Source: Vicinamibacterales bacterium (GTDB taxonomy: Bacteria; Acidobacteriota; Vicinamibacteria; Vicinamibacterales; UBA8438). Taken from it: a DNA stretch of 64,000 bases. The notes beneath the pieces are model-generated. The model did not search any database, had not been told where the DNA came from, and saw only the letters and a program-made list of their open reading frames with translations. Location: positions 20,873-84,872 of the forward strand of contig JAPYUM010000004.1 of the NCBI GenBank assembly GCA_029940535.1, written 5' to 3'. Shown piece after piece: positions 20,859-60,330 of the stretch. The position numbers and the translations under genes are program-made. How positions within the stretch are numbered: position 1 is the stretch's first letter; each line of letters opens with the position of its first letter.

Positions 20859-21004
20859 CCTCTCACGGTCGACGGGAGCGCCTGGCAGCCTGGGACGACA
20901 CCCGGTGCTGCACCAGGGCTGGCTGTATTCGACCGAGAAGCAACGCCGTCAGCCGGGATGAAGCGCTCGTCGAATGTGGCGGGGTTGTCACAACGGGCTG
21001 CTAG
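20859..21004 (-). repeat. Structured CTAG-ended repeat, copy D (degenerate)
   Basis: Minus strand begins CTAGCAGCCCGTTGTGA (compare copy C TIR), carries the core CGGCGTTGCTTCTCGGTCG and an outer stem TCGACG-AGCGC/GCGCT-CGTCGA. Confidence 0.55.
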
Positions 21005-44393: not shown

Positions 44394-44414
44394 TGGCCAG
44401 ACCCTGGTCACGTC

Positions 44415-44580
44415 CGAGCAGCCCGTGGTGAAAGTCCCGATGTATTCGACCGACGCTGAATCCCGCCGATCGGCGTTGTTCATCGGTCGCATACTGCCGG
44501 TCTTCTCCCTCTTCTCGCCTTGTTCGGCGGGTCCAGCGGCGGTCTCGGTGCTGACCGGGACTTTCACCACGGACTGCTAG
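44415..44580. mobile_element. MITE-like element with 23-bp terminal inverted repeats (structured repeat copy C)
   Basis: AGCAGCCCGTGGTGAAAGTCCCG (44417-44439) vs CGGGACTTTCACCACGGACTGCT (44556-44578), 1 mismatch; right end CTAG; internal core CGGCGTTGTTCATCGGTCGCA. Confidence 0.75.
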
Positions 44581-44825
44581 GACGCCTTCCCACGACCCTT
44601 TCGCGTGACCCCGGTCCGCTTTCTGGCCGCGCTCCGTGCGGCCAGAATCCACTCCGATCGCATTTGGGACAGGCCGTCCATGTAGACGGCGACACGGACT
44701 CGTTCCTGCTCGCCGTCGAGTGTCTTCAACAGCGTCACGGCTCGTTGGAGATCTCGTTCCACGGTGGCGCGGGTCGTGTCGTTGTACAGCCGCTTGATCT
44801 CCGCTCGTATCTCGGTCGGTGTCAT
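44577..44825 (-). CDS. Small basic hypothetical protein
   Basis: MTPTEIRAEIKRLYN...RVAVYMDGLSQMRSEW; follows polX; its stop is the element's CTAG. Confidence 0.65.
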   Translation of the reverse strand: MTPTEIRAEIKRLYNDTTRATVERDLQRAVTLLKTLDGEQERVRVAVYMDGLSQMRSEWILAARSAARKRTGVTRKGRGKAS

Positions 44826-44861
44826 AAGCCTGTAACGCACTCTACGTCTGTTGGTGGCTCC

Positions 44862-46589
44862 TCATCCGTCGACCCGATGGCGTCGGAGCGATGCGCGAAA
44901 GGCATCGAGCGGCAGCGTATTGAGGACATCGCCAGGCTCAGCCCAGGCCCGGCGGGCGGTCGTCACCCCCCAGCGCAACAGATTGAACGCCGTGGGGGCA
45001 TGCGCGTCGGTGGAGATGACGAGTTTGACCCCACGCTCGCGCGCCAGTCGAGCGTGGCTATCCGACAGGTCGAGACGATGGATCTGCGAGTTGATCTCCA
45101 TGGCCACGCCGGTCCGCGCCGCCGCGTCGAACACCGGTTCGAGCTTCAGCTTGTAGGGAGCGCGTCGCAACAGGAGGCGGCCGGTGGGATGGCCAATGAT
45201 GTCGACCATTGGCGACTCGATGGCTCGCAGGAGCCGGTCGGTCATCTGGTGCTCGTCCTGTCCAAACGCGGAATGGACGGACGCCACGACGAGATCGAGC
45301 TCGGCCAGGCAGTCATCGGCGAGATCCAGGGTGCCGTCGGCCCGGATGTCACATTCGATACCGGCCAGGAGCGTGATGCCCTCGAGTGTCGAGCTCACCT
45401 CGCGAATACGTCTGGCGTGGTCGAGCGCGCGCCGCTCGTCGAGGCCGTTCGCCATCGCCAGTGCCTGACTATGGTCGGTCACCGCCAGATACTCCAAACC
45501 GGCCTCTCGGGCCGCTCTAGCCATGGTCTCGACATCCGCCTTGCCATCGGTGGCCGTCGTGTGGCTGTGCAGGTCGCCTCTCAAGTCGGAGCGCTCGATC
45601 AAGCACGGTAGGTTCCCGTTCGCCGCGGCCTCGATTTCGCCTCGATTCTCTCGTAGCTCGGGAGGCACGTAGGCAAGACCGAGCGTCGCATAGACATCGG
45701 CTTCCGACGCGCCGGCGACATACTCGCCGTCGGCCACGCGGAAAAGACCATACTCGTTCAACTTGAGACCGCGTCGTAGCGCGAGGTCTCTGACGGCAAT
45801 GTTGTGGGCCTTGGACCCGGTGAAGTACTGCGCGGCGGCGCCCGCGCTCTCGGAGGCCACGACGCGCAGGTCGACCTGAATGCCGCCTCGCAGCAGGACG
45901 CTGGACTTGGTCGGGCCCTGACCCAGCACCCGTTCGACGTCCGGGAACCGGACGAAGTGGGGCATCAGCGCGTCAGTCGCGCCGACGGCCAACAGGTCGA
46001 TGTCGCCACAGGTCTCGCACCCGCGACGCAGACTGCCGACCGGGAAGATCGTTGCGTCAGGGGCTGCGGTGCGCAGGTGCTCGGCGAGTCGCGTGGCGAT
46101 CGCGTCGGCACGCCCGACCAGGTGCCGCCCGACTCGTGCCCGGTGCTCAGCCAGCGAGCGGAGCAGGAGCGCTTCCTTCTTGGCCCCCATGCCCTTGAGC
46201 TGTCGGAGCCGACCCTCGGTGGCGGCGGACTCGAGCTCGTCCAGGGTCTCGATGCCAAGCTCGCCATACAGGGTCCTCACCGTTTTCGGACCGACGCCCT
46301 GGAGTCGGAGCATGTCCAGGATGGAGGCCGGGAACTCCTGACGCAGCTCATCGAAATAGACGAGCCCCTTGGTATCGACGAGCTCGCGAATCTTCGCGGC
46401 GAGATCCTTGCCGATACCGGGGATGCCGCGTAGGTCCGGGTCCGTCAGATCGGCGATGCTCTCCGCCATGTGGCCGACGATATCGGCCGCGTTGCGGTAC
46501 GCACGGATCTTGAACGGGTTGGCGCCCTTGATCTCCAAGAGATCGCCAATGTCACTGAAGATCCGTGCGATGCCAACATTGTCAGTCAT
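44862..46589 (-). CDS. polX: DNA polymerase X with PHP domain
   Basis: NPFKIRAYRNAA, HhH GIPGIG, GSLRRG.ET.GDID, YFTGSKAHN, PHP motifs DLHSHT, TDHS, GHPTG, STDAH. Confidence 0.96.
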   Translation of the reverse strand: MTDNVGIARIFSDIGDLLEIKGANPFKIRAYRNAADIVGHMAESIADLTDPDLRGIPGIGKDLAAKIRELVDTKGLVYFDELRQEFPASILDMLRLQGVGPKTVRTLYGELGIETLDELESAATEGRLRQLKGMGAKKEALLLRSLAEHRARVGRHLVGRADAIATRLAEHLRTAAPDATIFPVGSLRRGCETCGDIDLLAVGATDALMPHFVRFPDVERVLGQGPTKSSVLLRGGIQVDLRVVASESAGAAAQYFTGSKAHNIAVRDLALRRGLKLNEYGLFRVADGEYVAGASEADVYATLGLAYVPPELRENRGEIEAAANGNLPCLIERSDLRGDLHSHTTATDGKADVETMARAAREAGLEYLAVTDHSQALAMANGLDERRALDHARRIREVSSTLEGITLLAGIECDIRADGTLDLADDCLAELDLVVASVHSAFGQDEHQMTDRLLRAIESPMVDIIGHPTGRLLLRRAPYKLKLEPVFDAAARTGVAMEINSQIHRLDLSDSHARLARERGVKLVISTDAHAPTAFNLLRWGVTTARRAWAEPGDVLNTLPLDAFRASLRRHRVDG

Positions 46590-46596
46590 TACTCAG

Positions 46597-46687
46597 ACGG
46601 GGCTGCGCCCGGGCCCCACGCGGGCCCTCGCGGGGGCCCCAAAGCCCCACTCCGGTCCCGCGGGCCGCGCATTGTCGCGCGCCCTGG
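46597..46687. repeat. GC-rich nested palindromic (REP-like) sequence upstream of polX
   Basis: CGCGGGCC...GGTCCCGCG outer stem around GGGGC-CCCAAA-GCCCC, plus GCGC...GCGC. Confidence 0.4.
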
Positions 46688-46713
46688 TTAGGGTGCTAAA
46701 AACGCCGCAGGGT

Positions 46714-46821
46714 GGTTTCCTGGCAAGCCGTTCGTCTGGCCAGGCGCAAGGAGGGAGCATGCAGGCGGCATGTGACCGACGAAGCAACGCCGCCAGGCGG
46801 ACGGATCGCCAGGAAACCTAG
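46714..46821 (-). repeat. Structured CTAG-ended repeat, copy B
   Basis: Minus strand CTAGGTTTCCTGGC...core...GCCAGGAAACC; the TAG is the GHMP kinase stop. Confidence 0.8.
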
Positions 46822-47819
46822 GTGTCATGTGACTTTACCAGTAGACCGTCGGTGTCGATGCTGCACTCCAGCAGTTGCGCGCCCGCGTCGGCGAGCGCCT
46901 GGCAGACTTCGGCCCGGCGATCCGGGTCGACCAGAAAGAAGATGCATCCGCCGCCGCCCGCGCCGCAGACCTTTCCCGCCTCGGCGCCGGCACTACGGGC
47001 GCTCGCCATCAGGGTCTCGATGGTGGGGGTGGTGACGCCCGGCGCCAGCGCTTGGCGTGCCTGCCACTCGCGGTTTACCTGTGTTGACAGCTCTGTCCAA
47101 TCGCCGCGAGTCAGCGCGTCTCGAATGTCCGTCGCGATGTCGCGAATGCGGTCGAACTCCGCGGACAGCGCGTCGTCGCCCTCGATGTGACGCCTTGTGA
47201 TATCCCAGTTGTTGAGACCCGAGGACCGGGAGTCGCCGCTGTAGACCAACACGAGGCGGCGTTGTAGCTCGGCCGTGTCGACCTCGATGGGCACCCTCGT
47301 GACGCCGACCGGGCCGAGCTCGACCGCCGAGACCCCACCGTACAGCGCAGGCCGGTAGTCCTGGACACCGGTCGGGATTCCGAGTGTCCGCGCCTCGAGG
47401 TTCATCGCGAGGGCGAGCAGTTGCTCCGACGAGTACTGGTTGCCACGCCAGCGCGCGAGTGCGGCGCAGACCGCGATGGTCAGAGCGGATGAGCCGGCGA
47501 TGCCGGCCCCCATCGGCGAAGCCGCGCGGGTGGTGATCTGGACCCCGTCGACCTGAAAAAATCGTGCAATGTGGGCCAGCAGCCGGTTCTCACCGGTGGT
47601 GTCGAGTTCTTCCCACCGGCCGGCGGTCAGGGTGTGGCCGGTGTCCTCCGACCGCACGCTCACACGGCCGTCACGTCTGGCCGTCACGGTGCAGGCGGCA
47701 CGCAAGCGAATGGCGACGTTGACGGTCTGTGCGCCCGGATGAAACAGATAGAGCGGCCAGATATCGAGCGTGCCCCCACCGAAGTCGAGACGGGTCGGTG
47801 CGGAAGAGTTAACCTGCAC
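46818..47819 (-). CDS. GHMP-family sugar kinase (HddA/fucokinase-like)
   Basis: SAPTRLDFGGGTLD, PMGAGIAGSSA, TGVQD, GKVCGAGGGG. Confidence 0.9.
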   Translation of the reverse strand: MQVNSSAPTRLDFGGGTLDIWPLYLFHPGAQTVNVAIRLRAACTVTARRDGRVSVRSEDTGHTLTAGRWEELDTTGENRLLAHIARFFQVDGVQITTRAASPMGAGIAGSSALTIAVCAALARWRGNQYSSEQLLALAMNLEARTLGIPTGVQDYRPALYGGVSAVELGPVGVTRVPIEVDTAELQRRLVLVYSGDSRSSGLNNWDITRRHIEGDDALSAEFDRIRDIATDIRDALTRGDWTELSTQVNREWQARQALAPGVTTPTIETLMASARSAGAEAGKVCGAGGGGCIFFLVDPDRRAEVCQALADAGAQLLECSIDTDGLLVKSHDT

Positions 47820-47825
47820 CGGCGC

Positions 47826-47833
47826 ATTATAAT
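47826..47833. promoter_or_regulatory. Palindromic bidirectional -10 element between the GHMP kinase and nagZ
   Basis: ATTATAAT gives TATAAT on both strands within a 60-bp divergent gap; 6 nt from the kinase GTG. Confidence 0.6.
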
Positions 47834-47879
47834 GGGCTCCGGTAGTCTGCGCTGAAACCCCAGTTCCAACCATTGTCAC

Positions 47880-48968
47880 GTGAAGAAACTACATCGTCAC
47901 ATTGGACAGCTTGTGGTGGCCGGGTTCGATGGGTACGTGGTGCCCATCGAGCTGCGCGCCCTGGCCCGCGAGTGGGACTTGGGGGGGGTGGTGCTGTTTG
48001 GGCGGAATGTCGAGGCACCGGAGCAAGTGGCCGAGCTTGCGTTCGAGGCGCAGGAGTTGGCGCACGACGTCCCGCTCTGGATCGGCGTCGACCAGGAAGG
48101 CGGCCGCGTGGCGCGTCTCCGCGCCCCGTTCACAGAGTGGCCGCCGATGGAAGGGCTCGGCCGCCAGCGTGACGACGGTCTGGCCGGGCGGTTCGCGGCC
48201 GCCCTGGCCGACGAGCTCTCCGCGGTCGGGGTCTCGCTGGACTTCGCTCCGGTCCTCGATATCAGGCACGACGGGGCGGACCCCGTCATCGGCGACCGGG
48301 CGCTGTCGTCCGACCCGGCGACGGTCGGTCGCATCGGCGCGGTCATCATCGAGACGCTGCAGCGAAACGGCATTGCCGCGTGCGCGAAGCATTTTCCCGG
48401 GCACGGGGACGCCCGCGCCGACTCTCACGCAGAACTGCCGGTCATCGAGCATCCACCGGAGCGTCTGCGCGAGCAGGACATGGCCCCGTTCCGGGCGGCG
48501 GTTGGCGCCAACGTGGCGGGGGTCATGACCGCCCACATTCTGTATCCGGCGTTGGATGTGGAGCAGCCCGCCACATTATCCCGAACCATCGTGCGCGACC
48601 TGCTTCGGGACGAGATCGGACACCGGGGGTTGGTCGTGACCGACGACCTGGAGATGGGCGCGATCACCCAGACGCACACGGTTGAGCAGGCGGCGGTGGC
48701 CGCCCTCGACGTCGGCTGCGATACCGCGCTGCTGTGCGGCACCTCGGTGGAGCGCCACGTGTCCGTATTGGAGGCGATCATCCGTGCCGTCGAGGCAAAG
48801 ACGCTCGCGGTCCGGACCGTGGAAGACGCGTTGGCCCGGCAACGGCGGGTGAAGGGGCGCTTTCTGGCCGGGGCACGTCCGCGCCGGCCGCTCTCCGGCA
48901 CGGCGCTCCAGGCGCGTCTGGGAACCTCGGCGCACCAGGCGGTGGCCGAAGAAATTGCGAGGGCATGA
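47880..48968 (+). CDS. nagZ: Beta-N-acetylhexosaminidase (GH3)
   Basis: GVDQEGGRV, FAPVLD, KHFPGHG...DSH, TDDLEMGA. Confidence 0.93.
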   Translation: MKKLHRHIGQLVVAGFDGYVVPIELRALAREWDLGGVVLFGRNVEAPEQVAELAFEAQELAHDVPLWIGVDQEGGRVARLRAPFTEWPPMEGLGRQRDDGLAGRFAAALADELSAVGVSLDFAPVLDIRHDGADPVIGDRALSSDPATVGRIGAVIIETLQRNGIAACAKHFPGHGDARADSHAELPVIEHPPERLREQDMAPFRAAVGANVAGVMTAHILYPALDVEQPATLSRTIVRDLLRDEIGHRGLVVTDDLEMGAITQTHTVEQAAVAALDVGCDTALLCGTSVERHVSVLEAIIRAVEAKTLAVRTVEDALARQRRVKGRFLAGARPRRPLSGTALQARLGTSAHQAVAEEIARA

Positions 48969-49017
48969 TGAGACCGTGGGCCCACGCGAAGGCGATATGG
49001 CTCGGGCCGCCTGATTC

Positions 49018-49953
49018 ATGGCCAGGTCGATGATGCGGAAGCCACGGGCGCTCAGACCGGGAGATCGAATTGCGCTGGTGGCTCCGGCGAGTCCGTTCGA
49101 CCGCGACCGTTTCGACGCCGGGGTGACGGAGATTGAGCGACTCGGCCTGACCCCGGTCGTCACCGAGGGAGTCTTCGCCCGGCGCGGGTATGTCGCGGGC
49201 GATGCCCAAAGTCGGGCGGCTTCGCTCGCCGCGGCGTGGTGTGACCGCTCGATCGCGGCGGTCATGGCCGCGCGCGGAGGGTATGGGAGCGCTCAGCTAC
49301 TGCCGTTTCTCGATCTCGCGGTTTTTCGCGCGTCGAACAAGCCGTTCATCGGACACAGCGACCTGACCGCGCTCCTGACGTGTCTGACCTGCTACTGCGC
49401 GACAACCTGTTTTCACGGGCCGATGGTGTTGAATCTGGCCGGCGGGGAGGCGCGCTACGACCGTGATTCCTTCGTGCGGTCGCTCATGACGACAGAGCCG
49501 GTGGGGGAGCTTGCGCCGGAGGGGCTCGTGCCGTTCAGGTCGGGTGTGGCGGCTGGAATCCTGATGGGCGGTACGCTGACCCAGCTGGTGGCGTCACTCG
49601 GCACCCCGTTCGCCTTCGCACCCCCGCCTGGATACATCCTGTTGCTCGACGAAATCGGCGAGCGGCCCTATCGCCTGGATCGGATGTTGACGCAACTCTC
49701 GTCCAGCGGGCTTCTGGCCCGAGCGTCGGGCGTCGTGTGTGGCGAGTTCCCGGACTGCGACGAGCCGGGCGGGCGCCCAACCGCTCGTGAGGTCATGGCG
49801 GAACTGTTCGACACGGTCCCGGGTCCGGTGGTCTTCGGGTTCCCGACGGGGCACACCAGGGGGCCGGCCTTCACGGTGCCACTCGGGGTCCAGGTGACGC
49901 TCGAGGCTGGTCATCGGTCCCGGCTCGTGGTGACGGAGTCGGCTGTCGTATGA
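49018..49953 (+). CDS. ldcA: LD-carboxypeptidase (S66)
   Basis: LRPGDRIALVAP, RGGYG, GHSDLT (Ser), LDEIGERPYRLDRML (Glu), GHT (His). Confidence 0.92.
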   Translation: MARSMMRKPRALRPGDRIALVAPASPFDRDRFDAGVTEIERLGLTPVVTEGVFARRGYVAGDAQSRAASLAAAWCDRSIAAVMAARGGYGSAQLLPFLDLAVFRASNKPFIGHSDLTALLTCLTCYCATTCFHGPMVLNLAGGEARYDRDSFVRSLMTTEPVGELAPEGLVPFRSGVAAGILMGGTLTQLVASLGTPFAFAPPPGYILLLDEIGERPYRLDRMLTQLSSSGLLARASGVVCGEFPDCDEPGGRPTAREVMAELFDTVPGPVVFGFPTGHTRGPAFTVPLGVQVTLEAGHRSRLVVTESAVV

Positions 49954-51374
49954 AGGTCTATCTCATCGGCGTCTGCGGCACCGCGATGGCCACGCTGGCC
50001 GCAATGCTGAGCGACCGGGGCCATGCGGTGCACGGATCTGACGCGCATGTCTATCCGCCGATGAGCGACTTCCTGGCCGCTCGGGGGATCACGTGTCTCG
50101 ACGGATTCGACGAGGCGCACATCACCTCGGACATCGAGCTCGTGGTCATCGGGAATGCCGTGTCCCGCGGCAATCCCGAGGTCGAAGCGGTACTGGACCG
50201 CAAACTCCGGTATCGGTCGTTGCCGGAGATGGTGCGTGAGACGTTTCTCTGGGACCGAGACTCCATCGTCATCGCCGGGACCCACGGCAAGACCACGACC
50301 GCATCTTTGGTGAGTTGGGTGCTGGCCGACGGGGGACGTGATCCGAGTTTCCTCATCGGCGGGTTGGCCGCTAATTTCGACTCGAGCTACCGATTGGGCG
50401 AGGGGCGAGAATTTGTCATTGAGGGCGATGAGTATGACAGTGCGTTCTTCGACAAAACCGCGAAGTTCCTGAAGTATCTGCCGAACGTCGCGGTGGTCGG
50501 CAATCTCGAGTTCGACCACGCGGATATCTATGATGACTTCGAGGCGATTCGTCTCGCCGTACGACGTCTGGTCTCGCTGTTACCGCGCGGGGGGAGTCTG
50601 GTGCTCGGTGCCGACAACGCGGCGGCGCTGGAGATCGCCGAGGGTGCGCCGTGCCCGGTCACGACCTTCGGACTGGTGAGCACCGCGGACTGGCGGGCCA
50701 CCGACATCGAGACGTCGCCCGATGGGATGACCTTCGGGGTGGAGCACCGCGGGGCCCGAGTGAGCGAGGTGCAGGTCCCGCTGGTGGGGGCGTTCAACGT
50801 CAGAAACGTGCTCGCCGCCATCGCGGTGGCGCACGGAGTAGGGCTCGACATGCCCACCATCGCTGCCACGCTCGCCCGATTCAAGGGGGTCAAGCGGCGG
50901 CTGGAAGTGCGTGGCCGGGCTCGGGGTGTCACCGTGTTCGACGACTTTGCGCATCACCCCACAGCGGTCAGGGAAACGCTGGCCGGCGTGCGCGCGGCGT
51001 TCCCGTCGCGAACGATCTGGGCGGTGTTCGAGCCACGGTCGGCCACGGCCTGTCGGCGGGTCTTTCAGGTGGAGTTCGCCGCCGCTTTCCATCAGGCCGA
51101 CGAAGTGATCGTCGGTCCGGTCTACCGGTCGTCATTGCCGGACGACGAGCGGCTGTCCGAGTCTGAGCTCGTGGACGGGATTCGACGCACCGGTCCTCGC
51201 GCCCGACATTTCGCCGATGTAGCCGACATCGTGCGAGCGGTGGCCGCGGAGGCCGGTGACGGAGACCAGGTCGTGGTGATGTCGAACGGCGGGTTCGGCG
51301 GGATTCATCAGCGACTACTGGACGCCCTGTCCGCCCCAGAAACGCCGTCCGCCGGCGTAGCCTCCGTCAAATAA
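49950..51374 (+). CDS. mpl: Murein peptide ligase
   Basis: GVCGTAMATLA, YPPMS, GNAVSRGNPEVE, GTHGKTTT, EGDEYDSAFFDK, DDFAHHPTA, FEPRS, MSNGGFGGIH. Confidence 0.93.
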   Translation: MKVYLIGVCGTAMATLAAMLSDRGHAVHGSDAHVYPPMSDFLAARGITCLDGFDEAHITSDIELVVIGNAVSRGNPEVEAVLDRKLRYRSLPEMVRETFLWDRDSIVIAGTHGKTTTASLVSWVLADGGRDPSFLIGGLAANFDSSYRLGEGREFVIEGDEYDSAFFDKTAKFLKYLPNVAVVGNLEFDHADIYDDFEAIRLAVRRLVSLLPRGGSLVLGADNAAALEIAEGAPCPVTTFGLVSTADWRATDIETSPDGMTFGVEHRGARVSEVQVPLVGAFNVRNVLAAIAVAHGVGLDMPTIAATLARFKGVKRRLEVRGRARGVTVFDDFAHHPTAVRETLAGVRAAFPSRTIWAVFEPRSATACRRVFQVEFAAAFHQADEVIVGPVYRSSLPDDERLSESELVDGIRRTGPRARHFADVADIVRAVAAEAGDGDQVVVMSNGGFGGIHQRLLDALSAPETPSAGVASVK

Positions 51375-52039
51375 TGCCGACATGGCGCATCGCGATGACG
51401 GGGGACGCCGCCGTGACCGTCTCCTTCCCGGCGCGGATCGACCGGGACATCAGCGCTCGGGTGGTGGCATTGGCGGAGACGGTCCGGGCGGCGGGATACC
51501 CCGGGGTCCGGGATGTCGTGCCGAGCTACCATTCCGTGACCGTGTATCTGGACCCGATTCGGACAGATCTCGACTCCCTCTGGACGACGCTGGAGGAGGC
51601 CGCGGCCGCCCCGCTCGAGTCCGGGCGGCCCCAACGGGACATCGTCGTCCCCGTGGTGTACGGCGGAGACGCCGGCCGAGATCTGGCCGAGGTCGCCCGC
51701 TTTGCCGGGGTTTCTCCGGATGAGGTGATTCGACTCCACACCCAGCGGCGCTATCGAGTGTATATGGTGGGTTTTCTGGCCGGTTTCCCCTATATGGGCA
51801 TTGTCGACCCGCGGATCGCGATCCCGCGTCGGGCCACCCCGCGGCCGGCGGTCGCGGCCGGGTCCGTGGGCATCGCGGGGGCGCAGACCGGGATCTACCC
51901 GGCCACGGCGCCTGGGGGCTGGCATCTGATTGGTCGCGCGACGGTGGAGCCGTTCGACCCACGGCGTGACCCACCGTGTCCGTGGCGACCGGGTGACGTG
52001 GTCACGTTCGAGTCGGTGAGCGAGGGTGGCGGGCGGTGA
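51374..52039 (+). CDS. pxpB: 5-oxoprolinase subunit B (KipI/AHS1)
   Basis: VPSYHSV, VPVVYGG, GFLAGFPYMG, GSVGIAG.QTGIYP..PGGW..IG. Confidence 0.92.
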   Translation: MPTWRIAMTGDAAVTVSFPARIDRDISARVVALAETVRAAGYPGVRDVVPSYHSVTVYLDPIRTDLDSLWTTLEEAAAAPLESGRPQRDIVVPVVYGGDAGRDLAEVARFAGVSPDEVIRLHTQRRYRVYMVGFLAGFPYMGIVDPRIAIPRRATPRPAVAAGSVGIAGAQTGIYPATAPGGWHLIGRATVEPFDPRRDPPCPWRPGDVVTFESVSEGGGR

Positions 52040-52992
52040 CCATCCGACTCGTGGACCCAGGGCTGTTGACCACCGTGCAGGACCGCGGGCGGTGGGGCCG
52101 TCAATCGCTTGGGGTCCCGGTGGCGGGGCCGATGGACGAGGTGTCACATCAGCTCGCGAACGTCGTGGTGGGTAACCCGGCTGACCGCGCGACTCTCGAG
52201 GTGACACTGGTGGGCCCGGCGCTCGAATTTCTCGCTGACATGACGTTCGCGGTCACTGGCGCGCAATTCGAGATGCGTCTCGACGACACCGCCGTCCAGA
52301 TGGGGGTCGCCCATCGGGCCGGTCGCGGGAGCATTCTGCGATTCGGATCCCGCGGCGCCGGCGCCCGCGCGTATATCGGGGTTGCTGGGGGTATTGACGT
52401 CCCGCTGGTGCTCGGAAGTCGAAGCACCGATCTGGCCAGTGGGTTCGGAGGGTTGGCTGGGAGACGATTGCGTGAAGGGGACCAGCTGGCGGTGGGCCCA
52501 TGGGAGGGACGAGCGCCACGGCGCGTGTCACTGAGTCCGCCGTTCGTGCTGCCGGAGGGCGGGAGCCGTATCCGGGCGATCGCCACCCCCGACGACGATG
52601 ACCCCGGCCCGCGGTGCGGAGACGCGGCGCTGGCGGGCTTCACCACGACCCGCTTCACGCTGGCGGCCGAGTCGAATCGGATGGGATACCGGCTGTGTGG
52701 GCCGCCGCTCGCGCTGGCGGACGAGACCCCCGTCTTGTCGGCCGCAACGCCGTTCGGTACCGTGCAGGTGCCACCGTCCGGGCACCCCATTCTGTTGATG
52801 GCCGACCGGCAAACCACCGGCGGATACGCGAGGATCGCGACCGTGATCAGCGCCGATCTTCCGGTGGCTGGCCAGCTCGGCCCGGGCGATTGGATTCGAT
52901 TCGAGCTGTGTGATCGACGGTCGGCGGTTGCCGCGCTGATCGCCCAACAGCAGACACTGATGCGGGTCACCCGATGTCCAGCCAAGCTGTAG
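52036..52992 (+). CDS. pxpC: 5-oxoprolinase subunit C (KipA/AHS2)
   Basis: GLLTTVQDRGR, GSRST, SNRMGYRL, QVPPSG.PILLMADRQTTGGY. Confidence 0.92.
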   Translation: MTIRLVDPGLLTTVQDRGRWGRQSLGVPVAGPMDEVSHQLANVVVGNPADRATLEVTLVGPALEFLADMTFAVTGAQFEMRLDDTAVQMGVAHRAGRGSILRFGSRGAGARAYIGVAGGIDVPLVLGSRSTDLASGFGGLAGRRLREGDQLAVGPWEGRAPRRVSLSPPFVLPEGGSRIRAIATPDDDDPGPRCGDAALAGFTTTRFTLAAESNRMGYRLCGPPLALADETPVLSAATPFGTVQVPPSGHPILLMADRQTTGGYARIATVISADLPVAGQLGPGDWIRFELCDRRSAVAALIAQQQTLMRVTRCPAKL

Positions 52993-53972
52993 GAGGCCGC
53001 GGGCACCCGCATCCAGACCAGACCGATCGCCGGTTGCGCGCGGTATTTGGCGACCGGGTCGGCCGCCAGGTGCCGCTGGGTGAGCTGACGACGTTTCACA
53101 CCGGTGGGGCGGCCGAGTGGCTGGTCGAGACCCGTAGCCCGGATGACATTGTGACCGCGGTCTGTCTGACGCGCGACCTCTCGGTGCCACTCACCGTGCT
53201 CGGCGGCGGCTCCAACGTGCTGGTGGGTGACGGGGGCGTGCGCGGGTTGGTGCTGCGGGTCCGACACGGCGCCATGGGTCGTGTCGACGCGCATCACGTG
53301 CGGGCTGACTGCGGCGTGACGATCAACGGCCTTGTGCGGTGGACCGTTCACCGCGGGCTCGGCGGTCTCGAGCGGTGGGCCGGGACGCCAGGTACGGTGG
53401 GTGGGGGGATCTGCGGGAACGCGCATTTCGACGACCAGTTGCTGGGTGATAAGGTGACGGCGGTTGGTCTCGTCGATCGGGCTGGACGCGTCGCGCGTGT
53501 GCCGGCCTCGGACATGGGCTTCGGCTACGACGAGAGCCGTGTGCAGCACACCGGCGAACTGGTGCTGTGGGCCGAGTTTGCGGTCGCGGCCGGTGCGGTG
53601 ACGGCGTTGCGGGCGGCCGCGCGCCGTTCGCTCGCCTTCCGCAAGCGTACCCAGCCGCTCGACCGGGCATCGGCCGGCTGTGTCTTTCAGAATCCCCGGC
53701 CCGACGATGGTCCGCTCCCGGACGGCGTGCCCCGATCGGCCGGGGCGCTGGTCGACCTGGCCGGGCTCAAGGGCCATCGGGTGGGAGCCGCCGCGGTGTC
53801 GCCGGTGCACGCCAATTTCATCGTCAACGAGGGCGGGGCCTCGGCCCGCGATGTGCGCGCGCTCATCGAGCGATGCCGCGCGACCGTGCGCGAGCGATTC
53901 GGGCTCGTCTTGCGGGACGAGCTGATGTACCTCGGTGAGTTCGAGACCGAGGGTGGAAACGAGGTGGGATGA
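52974..53972 (+). CDS. murB: UDP-N-acetylenolpyruvoylglucosamine reductase
   Basis: LGGGSNVL, PGTVGG, RKRTQP, SAGCVFQNP, HANFIVN. Confidence 0.94.
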   Translation: MSSQAVGGRGHPHPDQTDRRLRAVFGDRVGRQVPLGELTTFHTGGAAEWLVETRSPDDIVTAVCLTRDLSVPLTVLGGGSNVLVGDGGVRGLVLRVRHGAMGRVDAHHVRADCGVTINGLVRWTVHRGLGGLERWAGTPGTVGGGICGNAHFDDQLLGDKVTAVGLVDRAGRVARVPASDMGFGYDESRVQHTGELVLWAEFAVAAGAVTALRAAARRSLAFRKRTQPLDRASAGCVFQNPRPDDGPLPDGVPRSAGALVDLAGLKGHRVGAAAVSPVHANFIVNEGGASARDVRALIERCRATVRERFGLVLRDELMYLGEFETEGGNEVG

Positions 53973-55267
53973 GTTCAGGTATCGCTCCAACCGGGGAAGC
54001 ACTGACAACGTTGGTGGTCGAGGGTGGCCACCGGCTGATGGGTCGGCTCCAGGTCGAGGGCAACAAAAATTCGGCCTTGCCGCTGCTTGCGGCCTGTTTG
54101 CTGACCGACGCGCCGTGTGAGCTGACGAACGTACCTCGGATCAAGGACGTGCACGTCATGGCTGATCTGCTCCAGGGGCTCGGGGCCTCGGTGGAGGGGG
54201 TGGGCACAACGCGGCTCCGTGTGCAGTGCGCGCGGGTCACCGGTGACGAGCCGGACCGACGGTTAGTGGGACGGCTCCGCGGGTCGGTGCTGCTGTGTGG
54301 CCCGCTGTTGGCGCGCTGCGGGCGGGTGCGGCTGGCTCCGCCGGGTGGCGACTTTCCAGCGCGACGCACGTTGTCGGCACATCTCCAGGCGCTGGGGGCG
54401 ATGGGGGTTCGACGCCGCGAGGACACGGCCGCTGACTACGTGCTGGAAGCGCCGGGTGGCCTGGTGCCGGCCTCGGTGTATCTCGAGGAGGCGTCGGTGA
54501 CCGGGACCGAAACCGCGCTGCTGGCGGCGGCCGCCGCCCCCGGCGAGAGTGAGATCCGCCATGCCGCCTGTGAGCCCCACGTGGTGGAGCTGTGCGAGTT
54601 TCTGACCCAGATGGGGGCGGAGGTCGCTGGCGCCGGCACTCCGACCATTCGTGTCTCCGGCGGGGCCCGGTTTGGCGGCGCCACCCACCGTTTGAGTGGT
54701 GACTACATCGAGGCCGGCAGTTGGGCCGTGGCGGCGGCGGTCACCGGCGGCGAGTTGGAGGTCGGCGGCGCCCGCGCCGGCGATCTGGAGCCGATCACCG
54801 CGATCTTGCGTCGCATGCAGGTGGACTGCGACGTCGACGCGGACCGTCTCCGCGTTCGCCCGTCCTCACCGGTCGCCATCCGGCAGATCACCACGGCGCC
54901 GTGGCCGGGGTTTCCGAGCGATATGGTCAGCTTGATCAGTGTGCTGGCGACGCAGGCGACGGGGCGCACGTTGGTGCACGACTGGATGTACGAGCTTCGG
55001 CTGTTCGCCCTGGAGCAGTTGAGCGGCATGGGCGCGAACCTGTTCCTGTGTGATCCGCACCGGATGATCGTGGACGGTCCGGCTCGTCTCACCGGGCGCA
55101 CGCTGGACAGCCGGGACCTTCGCTCCGGCATGGCCCTGATCGCCGCGGCGCTGGCCGCGACCGGAACAAGTCGTATCCAGCCGTTGGAGACGGTCGAGCG
55201 GGGCTACGCGCAACTGGTTGAGCGATTGCGCGCGCTGGGTGCGCAGATCGACGTGGAGCAGGGGTAG
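53969..55267 (+). CDS. murA: UDP-GlcNAc 1-carboxyvinyltransferase with Asp at the active-site Cys position
   Basis: GNKNSALP, LRGS, PPGGDFPARR, SVTGTE, EPHV, D.IE, WPGFPSD, DLRSG, RGY. Confidence 0.94.
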   Translation: MSSGIAPTGEALTTLVVEGGHRLMGRLQVEGNKNSALPLLAACLLTDAPCELTNVPRIKDVHVMADLLQGLGASVEGVGTTRLRVQCARVTGDEPDRRLVGRLRGSVLLCGPLLARCGRVRLAPPGGDFPARRTLSAHLQALGAMGVRRREDTAADYVLEAPGGLVPASVYLEEASVTGTETALLAAAAAPGESEIRHAACEPHVVELCEFLTQMGAEVAGAGTPTIRVSGGARFGGATHRLSGDYIEAGSWAVAAAVTGGELEVGGARAGDLEPITAILRRMQVDCDVDADRLRVRPSSPVAIRQITTAPWPGFPSDMVSLISVLATQATGRTLVHDWMYELRLFALEQLSGMGANLFLCDPHRMIVDGPARLTGRTLDSRDLRSGMALIAAALAATGTSRIQPLETVERGYAQLVERLRALGAQIDVEQG

Positions 55268-55355
55268 GACACGCTACCCGTCCTTGGTTGGGTCGCGATC
55301 CTCGCAGGAGGGGGTTCCCTTTAGCGAGGGCCGCAGGCTAGCGTTGCCTGGGCGC

Positions 55356-57206
55356 CTATTGCGGTGGCGTAATCGGCGGCGGCAGGATCGGTGTGGCGCC
55401 GGCGCCGGGTCTATTCAGTGTGGCCGGCGGTCGGACCCCACCCGGGGTGACCGGTGCCGGCAGCGGCGCCCTGATATCGAGTCCGGTCCCCGTGTCCCGT
55501 TCGACTCGGAACGCTCGGAGATCCCGTTCTTCGAGATCGAGCACTCGGATAATGTGCGGCGTCAGAGTCACGATGATGTCGGTTTCCAGCGTGTCCTGCG
55601 TATTGCGCGCGAAAAGCCGTCCGATGACCGGGAGGTCGCTCAGCCAGGGCACGCCGTCCAGCGTCTGTCGTTCGTCGTCTCGAATCAAACCGGCCAGGAT
55701 ATTCGTTTCGCCGTCGCGTAGCCTGATGGTGGTATTGATCGACCGGTTGCCGAAAGTTGGCAAGCCGCCGAATCCGCTGCCAGAGATGTTGCTGACCTCG
55801 ATCGCGAGTTCCAGGGAGACGTCGTCGTTGTGGTGCGTGAACGGCGTAATGTCGATGTTGACGCCGATGTTCTCGTAGTTGAACGACGTGATCGGTTGTT
55901 GTTGAATACCGCCAGTCGCGATGGGCGAGAACGTGGTGGCCGGGACCGGCACCCGATCGCCGAAACGCGCTTGCGCCGCTAATCCCTCGGAGGTTCGCAG
56001 ATGCGGGTTGGCCAGGGTCCGCGTGTCCGCGTCGTTCTGGAGGAGCCGGTAGAAGAGCCCGGGTAGGCTCGCCACGAACACGTCGGCGCTGGCGAGCCCC
56101 TGGAGTTCGTCTAGGAAGCGACCGCCGCCGTCGATGGTCACGGACCCATCCAGGCCGGACGCACCAGGCGACGCGAATTGGAGCCCGTACTCGCGAAACC
56201 GCTTCCGATTGACCTCGAGAAGCTCGACATCGATGACCACTTCAGGGCGCGCCTTGTCGATCGCGGAGATGAGTCTCGCGGTGGCGGCCAGACGTTCCGG
56301 GGTGTCCCTGACAGAAATGGCGCGGGTCGCCGTGACCGGAGCGAGGCGGCGCAGGTCAATCACGAGACGCAGCAGGTCCATCGTCTCCCCGACGTCGGCG
56401 TTGCTGAGGTAGAACGTCTGCACGACCTCTTCCTCATACTCGCGCCGCTTGGCCGGGGTATCCGGGATCACGGTGACGGTCTGCTCACCGGTGACTCTGT
56501 AGAAGTTGCGAGTGGAGCGCGCCACCGAGCTGAGCGCGGTCGACAACGTCGTGTCCCGGAGGTCGATCGAGACCTTCTCGTCGACAAAGGTCGGGTCGAA
56601 GATCACGCTCACATCGGCGAACTGACCAAGCGCGGAAAAGACGTCGCGCGTGCTGGCGTCACGAAACACCAGCGAGTCGGGGAGCGTGGCCTCGGGCAAG
56701 ACGAGGCCCTCCGGCGGCAGCGCGCTCACTCGTTCGATCAGCGTTTCGAGCTGCGTCTGCCCGTCGTCGCGGGCGGCCAGGCGGGTTTGCACGGCGAGCC
56801 GCGTCTCTCGGAGCGCGTCCTGGATGTCGCCGCTGCTGGGGTTCATCTCGGCCGCGATCTGATACTCGAGCAACGCGTCGTCGTAGTTGCCGAGACCAGC
56901 CTCCCGGCGCCCCAGGGCGTAGTGATATTGACCGGCCCGTAGCTTGGCCCGTTCCAGGTCCCGGCTCAACCCGCGATCCTCGGGACGCTCTCGCAGGGCT
57001 CGGGTGTACTCGATCACGGCCGCGTCGTAGTCCTGCGACAACTCGGCCGAGCGTGCCCGGTCTTGCGCCCGTGTGGCGCACGCGGCCCCGCCGAGGCAGA
57101 CGAGCCCCAGTATCAGCAGGGCGCGGCCCGGGCGCCGCCGGCCCCGATTACTGGAGCGGCGTGGACTGGTTGGTGGAGATGATTTCGGTGCCACGTGGGA
57201 TCTCAA
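55356..57206 (-). CDS. TPR-containing secretin (GspD/PulD-like), probable lipoprotein; start uncertain
   Basis: Hydrophobic segment ending in GAAC, TPR region, TFYLSNA, EVVIDVELLEV, YENIGVNIDITP, RLRDGETNILAGLI, VPWLSDLPVIGRLF. Confidence 0.9.
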   Translation of the reverse strand: MRSHVAPKSSPPTSPRRSSNRGRRRPGRALLILGLVCLGGAACATRAQDRARSAELSQDYDAAVIEYTRALRERPEDRGLSRDLERAKLRAGQYHYALGRREAGLGNYDDALLEYQIAAEMNPSSGDIQDALRETRLAVQTRLAARDDGQTQLETLIERVSALPPEGLVLPEATLPDSLVFRDASTRDVFSALGQFADVSVIFDPTFVDEKVSIDLRDTTLSTALSSVARSTRNFYRVTGEQTVTVIPDTPAKRREYEEEVVQTFYLSNADVGETMDLLRLVIDLRRLAPVTATRAISVRDTPERLAATARLISAIDKARPEVVIDVELLEVNRKRFREYGLQFASPGASGLDGSVTIDGGGRFLDELQGLASADVFVASLPGLFYRLLQNDADTRTLANPHLRTSEGLAAQARFGDRVPVPATTFSPIATGGIQQQPITSFNYENIGVNIDITPFTHHNDDVSLELAIEVSNISGSGFGGLPTFGNRSINTTIRLRDGETNILAGLIRDDERQTLDGVPWLSDLPVIGRLFARNTQDTLETDIIVTLTPHIIRVLDLEERDLRAFRVERDTGTGLDIRAPLPAPVTPGGVRPPATLNRPGAGATPILPPPITPPQ

Positions 57207-57849
57207 AGGTGAACGGTGTATCGGGCAAATAGAGGTTTTCCTGTAGGTTGGAGAAGAAGAAGGTGGAAGTGCCGCCCTGCAGGTCGTAGGCCATCAGACG
57301 CGTGATGGTCAACGACCTCGCGTCGAGGACGACGGTCAGGAATTCAAAATCTGCCTCCGCTCGCGTGGGCGTCAGCCGGAGCACGTAACTGTCGGGCGGG
57401 ACGTCTTGGACCGTGTCGATGGCAGCCGTGAAGTCGTTGACGAAGTTACCGATACCCGCGAGGATCAGCGCCGGGGTGGTGCCCTGGTCAACCGAAGGTA
57501 CCGCGAACACCATGACCTGCTCATCGTCTGGGAAATACATGAACATCTGTTCCCCATCCGACACCATGAGTTTGTGCTCGGGTTCTTGATAGTCCCAGCG
57601 CATCTTGCCAGGTATCTTCAGCTGTACGCGGCCACTTTCGACGAGACGCGAGCGGAGGACGCCGCCCTCGTAGGTCTGGGTGAAATCGGCGGTGAGGTCG
57701 AGCATCGACTCATACCGTCCCTGCAGCGCCTGCTGCAACTCCTCCGCCGTGCGAACAGGAACCTGCGCTTGAGCCGCGCTCGGCCCATCCAGAGCCAGGC
57801 AGCTGGCGGCGACAATCGTGATCGTGTGGGTCCAGCTTCGCAACATCAT
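57148..57849 (-). CDS. lolA: Outer membrane lipoprotein carrier LolA
   Basis: Signal peptide, ADFTQ, GKMRWDYQEP..KLMVSDG, FTFEIP. Confidence 0.9.
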   Translation of the reverse strand: MMLRSWTHTITIVAASCLALDGPSAAQAQVPVRTAEELQQALQGRYESMLDLTADFTQTYEGGVLRSRLVESGRVQLKIPGKMRWDYQEPEHKLMVSDGEQMFMYFPDDEQVMVFAVPSVDQGTTPALILAGIGNFVNDFTAAIDTVQDVPPDSYVLRLTPTRAEADFEFLTVVLDARSLTITRLMAYDLQGGTSTFFFSNLQENLYLPDTPFTFEIPRGTEIISTNQSTPLQ

Positions 57850-57918
57850 CCTCCCGTGCGGCGCTGGCGTCCGAGACCTGGGCGTGGGGCGCCCGGCCGC
57901 CTCGGAGGGATAACGACG

Positions 57919-58290
57919 TCAGCCCTTCAGGCCACCCGCTTTCGGCGGTGCCTGCTTGGGCGCGTCTTTCTCGTCAGTCGGGAACTTCGCGGTGATCCAT
58001 GCCGCGAGGCCTCCCTCCAGCGCCGCGGCGCGGTAGCCCTTTCGGATCAGCGCGGCGGCGACTGGCGCGCTGACGAGTTCCTCCGGGTCGGAGTCATAGG
58101 CGACGACGTCACGGTCCGTGGAGAGTCCGGCACTCACGTCGTCCGGGTTCACACGCACGGCGCCGGGCAACGTGACCGTGCTGTGCTCGTAAGGATATTT
58201 CAAGCGCGCATCGAGAATGACCGGCGGGCTCCCGCCCTCGTCCTCGAGTCTGGTTTTTAACTCTTCTGTCGTGATCCTGGGTACGGCCAT
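57919..58290 (-). CDS. Rhodanese-like single-domain protein (no catalytic Cys)
   Basis: ITTEELK, VILDAR, LPGA, LEGGLAAW; active-site loop reads YDSDPEE. Confidence 0.85.
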   Translation of the reverse strand: MAVPRITTEELKTRLEDEGGSPPVILDARLKYPYEHSTVTLPGAVRVNPDDVSAGLSTDRDVVAYDSDPEELVSAPVAAALIRKGYRAAALEGGLAAWITAKFPTDEKDAPKQAPPKAGGLKG

Positions 58291-58362
58291 GAGCGGGCTC
58301 TGGTGTGAATGCGTTGGGCGTAACAGCAAGTGGTCCAGTTTTAGAATTGCTTGGCAATCCAA

Positions 58363-58587
58363 TCAGTTCATCGAACAGGCCCCAGCGCCCCGTGGGTCGC
58401 CACAGCTGCCGCACGCCTGGGGTAGCGAAGCCGCTGCGGTCGCCCCCCCGCGGCCCACGGCGAAGGCCGACAGTCGCTTGTCCAGCGACGTGCTCTCACA
58501 CGTCGGGCAGACCGGCGTGGCGCTCGCGCGTACCAGCAACTCGAAGTCTGTGCGGCACTCACGACACGCGTACTCGTAGATCGGCAT
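58363..58587 (-). CDS. FmdB-family zinc-ribbon protein
   Basis: MPIYEYACREC...FE...CPTC...LS.F; GGAGG RBS. Confidence 0.9.
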   Translation of the reverse strand: MPIYEYACRECRTDFELLVRASATPVCPTCESTSLDKRLSAFAVGRGGATAAASLPQACGSCGDPRGAGACSMN

Positions 58588-58606
58588 CAGATGCCTCCAA
58601 AATCGA

Positions 58607-58616
58607 ATGATAGCAT
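58607..58616. promoter_or_regulatory. Overlapping extended -10 elements for the divergent fmdB-like gene and ilvA
   Basis: Plus strand TGA-TAGCAT, minus strand TGC-TATCAT, in a 35-bp gap. Confidence 0.55.
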
Positions 58617-58622
58617 GCGCTG

Positions 58623-60158
58623 ATGGCCTCCTGGACCCCGCGCGAGCTGGTCGAGCGGCTCCTGCGGGAGATTCTGACGAGCCGCGTCTACGACGTCGCC
58701 CGTGAGACCCCGCTCGAGACCGCCACCGGTCTCTCGTCCCGCGTGGGCGCTCCGGTGCTGCTCAAGCGTGAAGACCTCCAACCCGTGTTCAGCTTCAAGT
58801 TGCGCGGCGCCTACAACAAGATTGCGCAATTGGAGCCTGAGCGCCGCGCTCGAGGCGTGGTGTGCGCCAGCGCCGGAAACCATGCGCAAGGCGTCGCCTA
58901 CGCCGCCCGCGCGCTGGACGTCCCGGCCCTTGTCGTCATGCCTCGGACGACACCGGAGATCAAGGTTCGCGCCGTTCGTCGGTTGGGGGCCGAGATCATG
59001 CTGGTCGGCGACGACTACGCTTCGGCGCAACAGCACGCCGAACAGGTTGGCGCCGAGCGTGCGCTCGAACTCGTGCACCCCTTCGACGATCTCTTCGTCG
59101 TGGCCGGACAGGGGACCGTGGCCGACGAACTGCGCCGCCAATGCCATGGGCCTCCGGGGGCCGTGTTCGTGCCGGTTGGCGGCGGGGGTCTGCTGGCCGG
59201 GGTGGCCGCCTACCTGAAGACCCTGATGCCATCCGTTCGGGTGATCGGGGTCGAGCCCGCCGAGTCCGATGCGATGTATCAGTCGCTCGCGGCCGGCCAC
59301 CGGGTGACGCTCGACCATGTGGGCCTGTTCGCCGACGGCACCGCGGTGACGCGGGTGGGTGAGCTGGCGTTCACCGTTGCGACCAGTCACGTCGACGAGA
59401 TCGTCCGGGTCTCTAATGATGAAATTTGCGCGGCGATCAAGGACGTGTTCGACGACACGCGTTCGGTGGTGGAACCGGCGGGCGCGCTGGCGGTGGCCGG
59501 GCTCAAGCGATGGATGGCGACCCATGAAGGGGGTGAGCGGCCGTTGGTGGCCATCTTGAGTGGTGCGAACATGAATTTCGACCGGCTCCGATTCGTGGCC
59601 GAGCGCGCCGAGCTCGGCGAGGCTCGCGAAGCGGTGTTTGGCGTCACGATTCCGGAACGGCCAGGGGCATTCCGGGCATTCTGCGCCGCCGTCGGTGCCC
59701 GGGTGGTCACCGAATTCAACTATCGGTTTCGCGGCGGAGCGGACGCCCACATCTTCGTGGGGGTGGGAATCAGTTCACGCGCTGACGCGTCGGCGCTGCA
59801 GGCGCGGCTTGAGGCTGAGGGTTACCCCGTGGTGGACCTCTCGGACGACGAGATGGCGAAGCTGCATGTCCGGCACCTGGTGGGCGGGCGGGCGGCCGGG
59901 GTGAGTCAGGAGCGTCCCTGTCGGTTCGAGTTTCCGGAGCGCCCCGGGGCCCTGCTCGAGTTTCTCGACAAGCTCGGCGGTCGATGGAACATCAGCCTGT
60001 TCCACTATCGCAACCACGGTGCCGACTTCGGCCGGGTGCTGGCGGCCTTCGAAGTGCCTGACGACGAACTCCCCCGGTTCGATGAGTTCCTGGCCGGTCT
60101 CGGCTACGCCTACGAGCTGCAGACGAAGAATCCCGCCTACGAAATGTTCCTGGGCTAG
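58623..60158 (+). CDS. ilvA: Threonine ammonia-lyase, biosynthetic
   Basis: KREDLQPVFSFKLRGAYN, SAGNHAQG, GGGGL, two C-terminal ACT-like domains (PERPG, FHYRNHG). Confidence 0.97.
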   Translation: MASWTPRELVERLLREILTSRVYDVARETPLETATGLSSRVGAPVLLKREDLQPVFSFKLRGAYNKIAQLEPERRARGVVCASAGNHAQGVAYAARALDVPALVVMPRTTPEIKVRAVRRLGAEIMLVGDDYASAQQHAEQVGAERALELVHPFDDLFVVAGQGTVADELRRQCHGPPGAVFVPVGGGGLLAGVAAYLKTLMPSVRVIGVEPAESDAMYQSLAAGHRVTLDHVGLFADGTAVTRVGELAFTVATSHVDEIVRVSNDEICAAIKDVFDDTRSVVEPAGALAVAGLKRWMATHEGGERPLVAILSGANMNFDRLRFVAERAELGEAREAVFGVTIPERPGAFRAFCAAVGARVVTEFNYRFRGGADAHIFVGVGISSRADASALQARLEAEGYPVVDLSDDEMAKLHVRHLVGGRAAGVSQERPCRFEFPERPGALLEFLDKLGGRWNISLFHYRNHGADFGRVLAAFEVPDDELPRFDEFLAGLGYAYELQTKNPAYEMFLG

Positions 60159-60263
60159 GTTTCCTGCCGAGGTGCCCGTCTGGACGGCGTTGCTTCCTCG
60201 GTCACAGCCGGCCTGGCTGCTCCCTCGTCGCGCCTTGCCAGCCGAACACCTCGACAGGAAACC
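60155..60263 (+). repeat. Structured CTAG-ended repeat, copy A
   Basis: CTAGGTTTCCTG...core...CAGGAAACC; the TAG is the ilvA stop. Confidence 0.8.
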
Positions 60264-60330
60264 GGTTCGCCGGGGAGGTGGGTTGGCCGGTGCGTCGCCT
60301 CGTCGGGATCCTTGACACCCGCGCGACAGG

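Follow-up and report, generated by a model that had tools for sequence, protein, structure and literature searches.

MITEs (miniature inverted-repeat transposable elements) ordinarily conserve their ends while the interior drifts. The Correia elements of Neisseria are hairpin MITEs of about 100 to 155 bp that insert at TA near genes, are present in hundreds of copies, and influence neighboring transcripts as folded RNA; we know of no autonomous partner for them. Other described systems with features in common are the REP/REPIN-RAYT systems (REP, repetitive extragenic palindromic) and, among the structured RNAs of Rfam, the Acidobacteria motifs Acido-1 and Acido-Lenti-1. Here, four copies (A to D) of a hairpin repeat were analyzed in a 64,000-nucleotide (nt) stretch, referred to below as the window, from the metagenome-assembled genome (MAG) of a Vicinamibacterales bacterium (GenBank assembly GCA_029940535.1, contig JAPYUM010000004.1, positions 20,873 to 84,872, forward strand). 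The copies probably represent a nonautonomous hairpin MITE superfamily of Acidobacteriota that is mobilized by a DDE transposase at YTAR/CTAG sites and carries a structured core maintained by selection. All four lie where the original prediction had placed them:

60158..60263, plus strand: copy A, a 106-nt family-H hairpin MITE with ends GGTTTCCTG...CAGGAAACC (sequence, nhmmer, fold, and covariance model).
46714..46818, minus strand: copy B, a 105-nt family-H hairpin MITE with ends GGTTTCCTG...CAGGAAACC (nhmmer, fold, and covariance model).
44419..44576, plus strand: copy C, a 158-nt family-C hairpin MITE (inverted repeats, fold, and covariance model).
20859..21004, minus strand: copy D, a decayed family-C copy with a left inverted repeat (CTAGCAGCCCGTTGTGACAA...) and the core's 5' half, the 3' half and the right repeat having been lost.

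Like IS5/IS1182-type MITEs, these elements are short, non-coding, and multi-copy, with terminal inverted repeats, YTAR/CTAG flanks, and insertion polymorphism, and the repeats of C and D are identical to those of an insertion sequence (IS) with DUF772 and DDE_Tnp_1 domains. The interior sets them apart: it is not a deleted IS, the IS lacks the core, and the core covaries, occurs phylum-wide, and is common to at least five families with unrelated ends. Thus, in a poorly studied phylum, it is the interior that is conserved across differing ends. The Correia elements are unrelated in sequence and host phylum, and C and D have an autonomous partner, which the Correia elements are not known to have. 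With REP/REPIN-RAYT systems, the elements share abundance as extragenic hairpins at gene 3' ends, a strand-asymmetric fold with G-T pairs, and a RAYT-like gene in the genome; however, that gene is flanked by another, small REP, and the elements are 105 to 165 nt long with DDE-type repeats and CTAG on both sides. With Rfam structured RNAs, they share a conserved, covarying secondary structure in Acidobacteriota, but the window holds no match to any Rfam 15 family at the gathering score, and when the B and C loci were scanned with relaxed settings, the hits were at chance level only (E about 2 to 6). The literature, searched at listing and abstract level, yielded no account of the elements.

In a four-way alignment, all copies share the core CGGCGTTG(C)TTC(N)TCGGTC, and A to C also share a second block, (K)CTCCCTC..CGCCT.G; the 3' half of D is missing. 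As originally proposed, the inner stem is CAGCC/GGCTG in A and CATGC/GCATG in B, and the outer stem is GAGGTG/CACCTC in A and an imperfect GATCCG/CGGCTT in B. Covariance-model core matches were obtained at 60171-60251 in A (93.6 bits), 46726-46806 in B (90.5 bits), and 44457-44536 in C (73.4 bits). Copy D scored 16.8 bits (E 0.01) and is thus a degenerate half copy. The folds of the copies beat all dinucleotide shuffles (z, -4.3 to -9.0).

The conserved core

The core comprises 53 nt with 14 pairs and reads, on its purine-rich strand, GGCG-(C)-GA-N-GA-GG-GAG-[stem-loop]-TGA-CC-GA-N'-GA-AGCAA-CGCC. Three tandem G-A motifs are conserved in it, also across families. Covariation was assessed in 54 sequences: a profile search of the source genome supplied 23, and an exact 21-nt core word picked out the remaining 31 in other MAGs. 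In this alignment, 96.4% of the cells are paired and 7 of the 14 pairs changed on both sides. The covariation of 0.371 compares with 0.110 for shuffled alignments, was reached by none of 500 shuffles, and exceeds all slid controls (at most 0.080). The lone pair N-N' between two G-A tandems is CG in 33 sequences, GC in 12, and AU in 6, and the G-T adjoining the apical stem is replaced by A-T in 8. Among 63 in-register A/B copies, the 12 non-Watson-Crick positions are G-A in 52 to 55 copies, except for one at 34; the stems of these copies hold 2033 Watson-Crick cells, and G-T pairs number 162 for the purine-rich strand, compared with 88 for its complement. The compensatory changes read from the first four copies are thus confirmed both by the pairing counts of the A/B copies and by the larger alignment.

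The original prediction had further noted that the loops are conserved and are compatible with tandem G-A pairs on the opposite strand, and this holds. In copy A, that purine-rich strand folds better than its complement both as RNA (-69.4 versus -54.5 kcal/mol) and as DNA (-32.5 versus -24.6 kcal/mol). Rare variants were counted in 43 source-genome copies, all of them 105 nt in length and with at least 40 of 53 core matches. The core held 18 in 2064 cells, compared with 53 in 2236 cells of the outer stems (p = 1e-4). We infer that the core, consisting of a stem, three tandem G-A motifs split by covarying pairs, and an apical stem-loop, is kept by selection, and that it would function through its purine-rich strand, folded as a single strand.

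The same core could also be without function: it would then be the most ancient common part of a single MITE lineage in which nested insertion and recombination exchanged the ends and templated palindrome repair kept the pairing. Nested and mosaic copies are indeed common, elements target each other's CTAG ends, and bursts of near-identical copies occur (by blastn in the source genome, A is 98.2% identical to C37 and B is 99.1% identical to C9). However, repair should erase mismatches, yet the G-A positions persist at the frequencies given above and across families. An alignment of the outer stems across families is not possible, yet the core persists in different classes of the phylum, and rare variants are depleted in it. 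A functionless core is, on this evidence, quite improbable.

The distribution of the core was determined in the source genome (G000; 4.83 Mb, 228 contigs, 96.85% complete, 65% G+C). Family H, the A/B type, gave 221 nhmmer matches, about 120 of them full length, and blastn returned 201, 216, 35, and 14 matches for A, B, C, and D, respectively. A core-only profile gave 199 matches, of which 148 were complete, and 46 of the complete ones lay outside full A/B copies. These 46 belong to families with differing long stems and ends (CTAGCAGCCCG..., CTAGTGTCCTGTAACC..., TTAGGACCCGGCC..., and CTAGGGTCGGCGC...), all of which end in YTAR. The core is thereby common to families H, C (about 158 nt, including copies C and D), E, F, and G, whose ends are unrelated. 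One structured module on different ends had been anticipated from the four copies, and at least five kinds of ends were found.

Beyond the source genome, all six other genomes of the genus had matches, as did 24 of 41 relatives overall (source genome counted). Among the matches listed for the exact core word (80 of at least 100 stretches), hits were to Acidobacteria/Vicinamibacteria MAGs and two entries named "uncultured bacterium." Model R1 matched 24 of 151 genomes drawn evenly from Acidobacteriota, or 23 of 150 without G165, which is flagged unpublished. These matches extend to families outside the class, and several genomes had at least 20 to 30 scored matches. Eleven distant loci that were inspected have the same long hairpin fold, most with ...CAGCCCGTGGTGAAAG-type ends starting with TTAA, CTAG, or CCAG. 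Viral contigs yielded a single exact core match. In C-type elements of distant Acidobacteriota (L162-L172), as in the window (44437-44456 with 44537-44558), a second conserved mismatched stretch, GCACCGAGAC... opposite ...GTCGAATGC, lies between the end repeats and the core, and the conserved fold may accordingly be longer than 53 nt.

End repeats, a partner transposase, and mobility

The end-repeat pattern of copy C was found in 83 of 104 genomes of the taxonomic family, and a reversed control pattern was found in none. Many unpaired matches in G049 and G047 proved to be the ends of a 1.47-kb IS. Copies are present in G049 and G047 and, in full, in the same-genus genomes G001 (three copies) and G002, and their inverted repeats, CAGCCCGTGGTGAAAGTC, are identical to those of C. 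In C, the repeats lie at 44419-44436 (no mismatches) and 44559-44576 (one mismatch), with CGAG (44415-44418) and CTAG (44577-44580) as flanks. The IS is flanked by CTAG/CTAG (two copies), CTAG/CTAC, and CTAG/TTAG in G001/G002 and by CTAG/CTAA in a G049 copy. Its 466-residue transposase, encoded at L125:382-1779, contains Pfam domains DUF772 and DDE_Tnp_1, with DDE_Tnp_1_6 just below the cutoff. The best NCBIfam match was IS1182 (NF033551), at 165.4 and 162.4 bits, below the cutoff of 270 that would place the protein in this family; IS5_4 followed at 75 to 89 bits. Because their ends are the inverted repeats of this IS, C and D are, judged by those ends, MITEs of an IS1182/IS5-like insertion sequence. 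The original prediction had counted a match to an IS end against itself, and for C and D it was indeed such a match that emerged.

Mobilization in trans by an IS1182/IS5-like DDE transposase is shown for C and D by their ends and is proposed by extension for the A/B type. The enzyme would recognize the terminal inverted repeats and place the element in a YTAR sequence, most often CTAG, so that TA or CTAG stands on either side. Sequences of the tail type (...TTTTTCAGCAACCTGCTAG; tail T) stand directly behind an A/B hairpin in 28 of 38 cases, forming H+T units. Two DDE_Tnp_1 matches are present in the source genome, one beside a masked stretch and one a fragment, and neither carries the repeats. 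At L135, a degenerate IS locus, the inverted repeats shed no light on an A/B partner. An IS630-type partner (DDE_3) was considered and dropped, with no matches in the source genome, at its 96.85% completeness and with ISs often unassembled in MAGs.

Comparison with relatives revealed insertion polymorphism. In the gap between ilvA and the PALP-domain gene, the element is present in the source genome and in G002, and G001, G003, and G006 have a short gap without it. In 12 comparisons of other MAGs with the source genome, about half of the source sites lacked an element and the rest held remnants. A contig of run X16 joins 44395 to 44577 via five other letters and so lacks copy C; it is about 94% like the window and hence from a relative, and it belongs to an RNA library but may not itself be RNA. 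In L011 compared with source-genome contig C55, TA is present on both sides of the insert. Elements are thus present or absent at orthologous sites, and individual insertions are not conserved between relatives.

Movement of the hairpins as single-stranded DNA by a Y1/HUH enzyme, as in REP/REPIN-RAYT or IS200/IS605 peel-and-paste transposition, with insertion 3' of CTAG and no duplication, would fit the strand-asymmetric fold. It would also fit the left flank, where CTA is conserved in front of the element (C in 69, T in 59, and A in 65 of 108 copies) with nothing comparable directly behind GGAAACC, and the L081 and L030 junctions, where a second TA is lacking. One Y1_Tnp (RAYT-like) open reading frame (ORF) of 175 residues is present in the source genome, outside the window (G000:C187:40600-41124). 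However, the small REP that flanks this ORF is a different one (GGCGCAGGCCTT.AGGCCTGCG), with the nearest H matches more than 7 kb away, and a RAYT link of the H hairpins was rejected. The C/D ends match a DDE insertion sequence in their repeats, CTAG borders complete units on both sides, and in the closed genome G064 the 26 matches listed in the first 1.55 Mb show no strong strand bias (16 versus 10). A Y1/HUH mechanism is therefore highly improbable. Of the co-occurring enzymes proposed at the outset, the transposase was found, as a DDE enzyme for the C/D ends, and the RAYT-like gene is unlinked. The small REP around that gene is often paired with CGCACGGCTGAAGCCGTGCG and recurs beside several MITE copies.

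Target sites, stop codons, and the role of the core

The original prediction had observed that A and B begin at the stop codons of ilvA and of a GHMP kinase gene, and ORF and domain calls agree. The first G of copy A is the G of the ilvA stop codon TAG (60156-60158; CTAG at 60155-60158), which ends an ORF of 511 residues with PALP and Thr_dehydrat_C domains. On the minus strand, the first G of copy B is the G of the TAG (46818-46820; CTAG at 46818-46821) of the GHMP kinase ORF (353 residues). Copy C does end at a TAG, within its right CTAG, where a single ORF of 87 residues without a Pfam match stops. Among 174 H copies, the left junction is NTAG in 91 and CTAG in 75, and in 45 it is the stop of a crude ORF call. 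Complete H+T units have CTAG on the right in 30 of 36 cases and on the left in 14 of 36, and they abut stops on the left in 6 and on the right in 5 of the 36. An apparent preference of the left end for stops (39 of 76 CTA junctions versus 3 of 28 tails) vanished when complete units only were considered.

At filled sites the stop reads TAG, in place of the TAA (L030) or TGA (L046) of the corresponding element-free sites, and at L098 the gene is eight codons longer at the site without the element. Since the elements begin with G, insertion after TA rebuilds TAG, and an element that enters a TAG or TAA stop behind its TA would thus leave the gene intact. TAG accounts for 1737 of 3612 crude ORF stops and for 44% of stops in 1650 ORFs of at least 300 residues, and TAA accounts for about 10 to 11%. 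Such a TAG frequency is unusual for a bacterium of 65% G+C. TAG is as common a stop as TGA in this genome, and the base in front of most TAG stops is G (967), with C less frequent (402), which means that the high TAG use is not due to the MITEs. CTAG is under-represented seven-fold (2250 found versus about 15,500 expected from composition), and these repeats contain or adjoin 513 of the 6238 strand-specific CTAR sites.

With TAG at about 44 to 48% of stops and CTAG otherwise rare, suitable stop sites would be common, and surviving copies would accumulate at gene 3' ends. In the gene gaps examined, 22 of 39 copies lie in convergent gaps, compared with 327 of 1465 in the background, and 2 of 39 lie in divergent gaps; a gene 3' end is faced by 34 of 39 left sides and by 25 of 39 right sides. 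Insertion or retention at stop codons, as first proposed, therefore stands as an observed overlap, and as a separate property it is largely replaced: the overlap follows largely from the CTAG/YTAR target, the first base G, the heavy use of TAG, and selection against hits inside genes and promoters.

These positions also bear on whether the core is a functional RNA module that MITEs have spread and that is transcribed from gene 3' ends or from its own promoter, as a terminator, mRNA 3'-end protector, processing site, or protein platform. The covariation, the conserved loops, the phylum-wide spread, the low number of rare variants in the cores of individual copies, and the location of copies at gene 3' ends are all consistent with such a role, as are contigs from RNA libraries that contain the elements (contigs alone, from which strand, ends, and level are not readable). 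However, in 12 of 15 co-directional gaps the flanking genes have the purine-rich, better-folding strand as their antisense strand, and complete units have no orientation preference toward stops. An intrinsic terminator was rejected: no terminator-like site was found in 46500-46900, around copy B, and H+T folds show no stem next to the T-run, which follows the hairpin at a distance of about 10 nt. Relative to genes, depth over B was alike in RNA runs (X16 and X18, contigs only) and DNA runs, high in both, as expected of a multi-copy repeat. Given also that no Rfam family matched and that individual insertions are not conserved between relatives, an RNA module is considered unlikely.

For the core of the proposed DDE-mobilized MITE, the antisense position of the favored strand and the lack of orientation preference of complete units lead us to lean toward a role at the level of the DNA or of the element. 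In its most likely form, the core would act as DNA, as an extruded hairpin or cruciform that aids the element or its tolerance by the host; a sense-strand role in 3' untranslated RNA is less likely. It is possible, if on balance doubtful, that the core is an independent, selection-maintained module that rides at least five sets of ends and is delivered to hundreds of gene 3' ends per genome, for example as a protein-binding platform formed by the folded strand.

Several observations weigh against the preferred explanation: (i) in 31 of the 54 aligned sequences, the exact 21-nt word predetermines a portion of the core's 3' side, the preference of G-T wobbles for the purine-rich strand is just 162 versus 88, and compensatory change in long inverted repeats can come from templated repair without selection; (ii) the core had no matches in 17 loci of the IS and so is dispensable to the transposase for the IS itself; (iii) no IS with A/B-type GGTTTCCTGGCG ends was found, this repeat being absent from IS loci L124-L140, and the source genome holds only a transposase fragment; (iv) tail T and the left end of H resemble the IS repeat loosely, by reading, and it is this resemblance that suggests mobilization of A/B; (v) a duplication of TA is indistinguishable from one of CTAG since the target itself is CTAG; (vi) some filled/unfilled pairs are unclean, with no second TA at L081 and L030 and a 7- to 8-nt repeat at L101, and the "empty" sites L029 and L080 are actually remnants; and (vii) 39 of 76 CTA junctions lie at stops, a large excess over the crude background (216 CTAR sites at stops versus 3744 outside crude genes), and target choice alone may be insufficient for the stop excess, with crude gene calls covering only 65% of the genome.

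If the reading of the core as an independent module is correct, the core would be a mobile structured module rather than transposon filler. Should it have a role in short-element transposition or in the host, it would represent a new structured DNA or RNA motif with hundreds of copies per genome. In practice, the repeats break MAG assemblies and rewrite stop codons and C termini, and they should be masked before noncoding RNA searches in Acidobacteriota genomes.

Neighboring modules and variant copies

Three further repeat modules adjoin copies A and B:

60264..60330, plus strand: a decayed second H-like module (GGTTCGCCGGGGAGGTGGG...), which fills the remaining gap to the stop of the convergent PALP-domain gene.
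46686..46713, minus strand: tail T of copy B, reading ACCCTGCGGCGTTTTTAGCACCCTAACC in minus-strand orientation and ending in CTAA; H elements usually have this right end, which is loosely similar to the inverted repeat of the IS.
46596..46685, strand not assigned: module X, another abundant repeat, which fills the rest of the gap between the GHMP kinase and PolX genes.

A right flank like the module behind copy A was also found behind other H copies. Module X gave 41 scored matches and 149 candidates in the source genome. It (...GACGGGGCTGCGCCCCGAACCCC...GCGCGCATTGTCGCGCGCC...) is often located inside or directly behind H copies, several times straight after the core sequence GTTGCTTCG, and the 228-nt gap between the GHMP kinase and PolX genes is composed entirely of H, T, and X. 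On the purine-rich (plus) strand of copy B, 46733-46821 reads AAGGAGGGAGC-ATG followed by 19 further codons and ends at the element's own terminal TAG. This 20-codon ORF behind AAGGAGG was rejected as a gene; copy A has no ATG there, and the ORF is not conserved.

Many contigs of the source genome end inside an H copy. Head-to-tail arrays of two or three H units in a single orientation, with a period of about 94 to 137 nt, occur at G000:C104:16290-16502 and at loci L042, L045, L048, L051, L066, and L104; their unit borders do not coincide with element ends, suggesting tandem duplication rather than repeated insertion. In some H copies (G000 C73:1252, C91:58473, C124:9048, and C195:11310), the apical stem-loop is swapped for a small G+C hairpin, CCCCGCCCGGCCGGGCGGGG.

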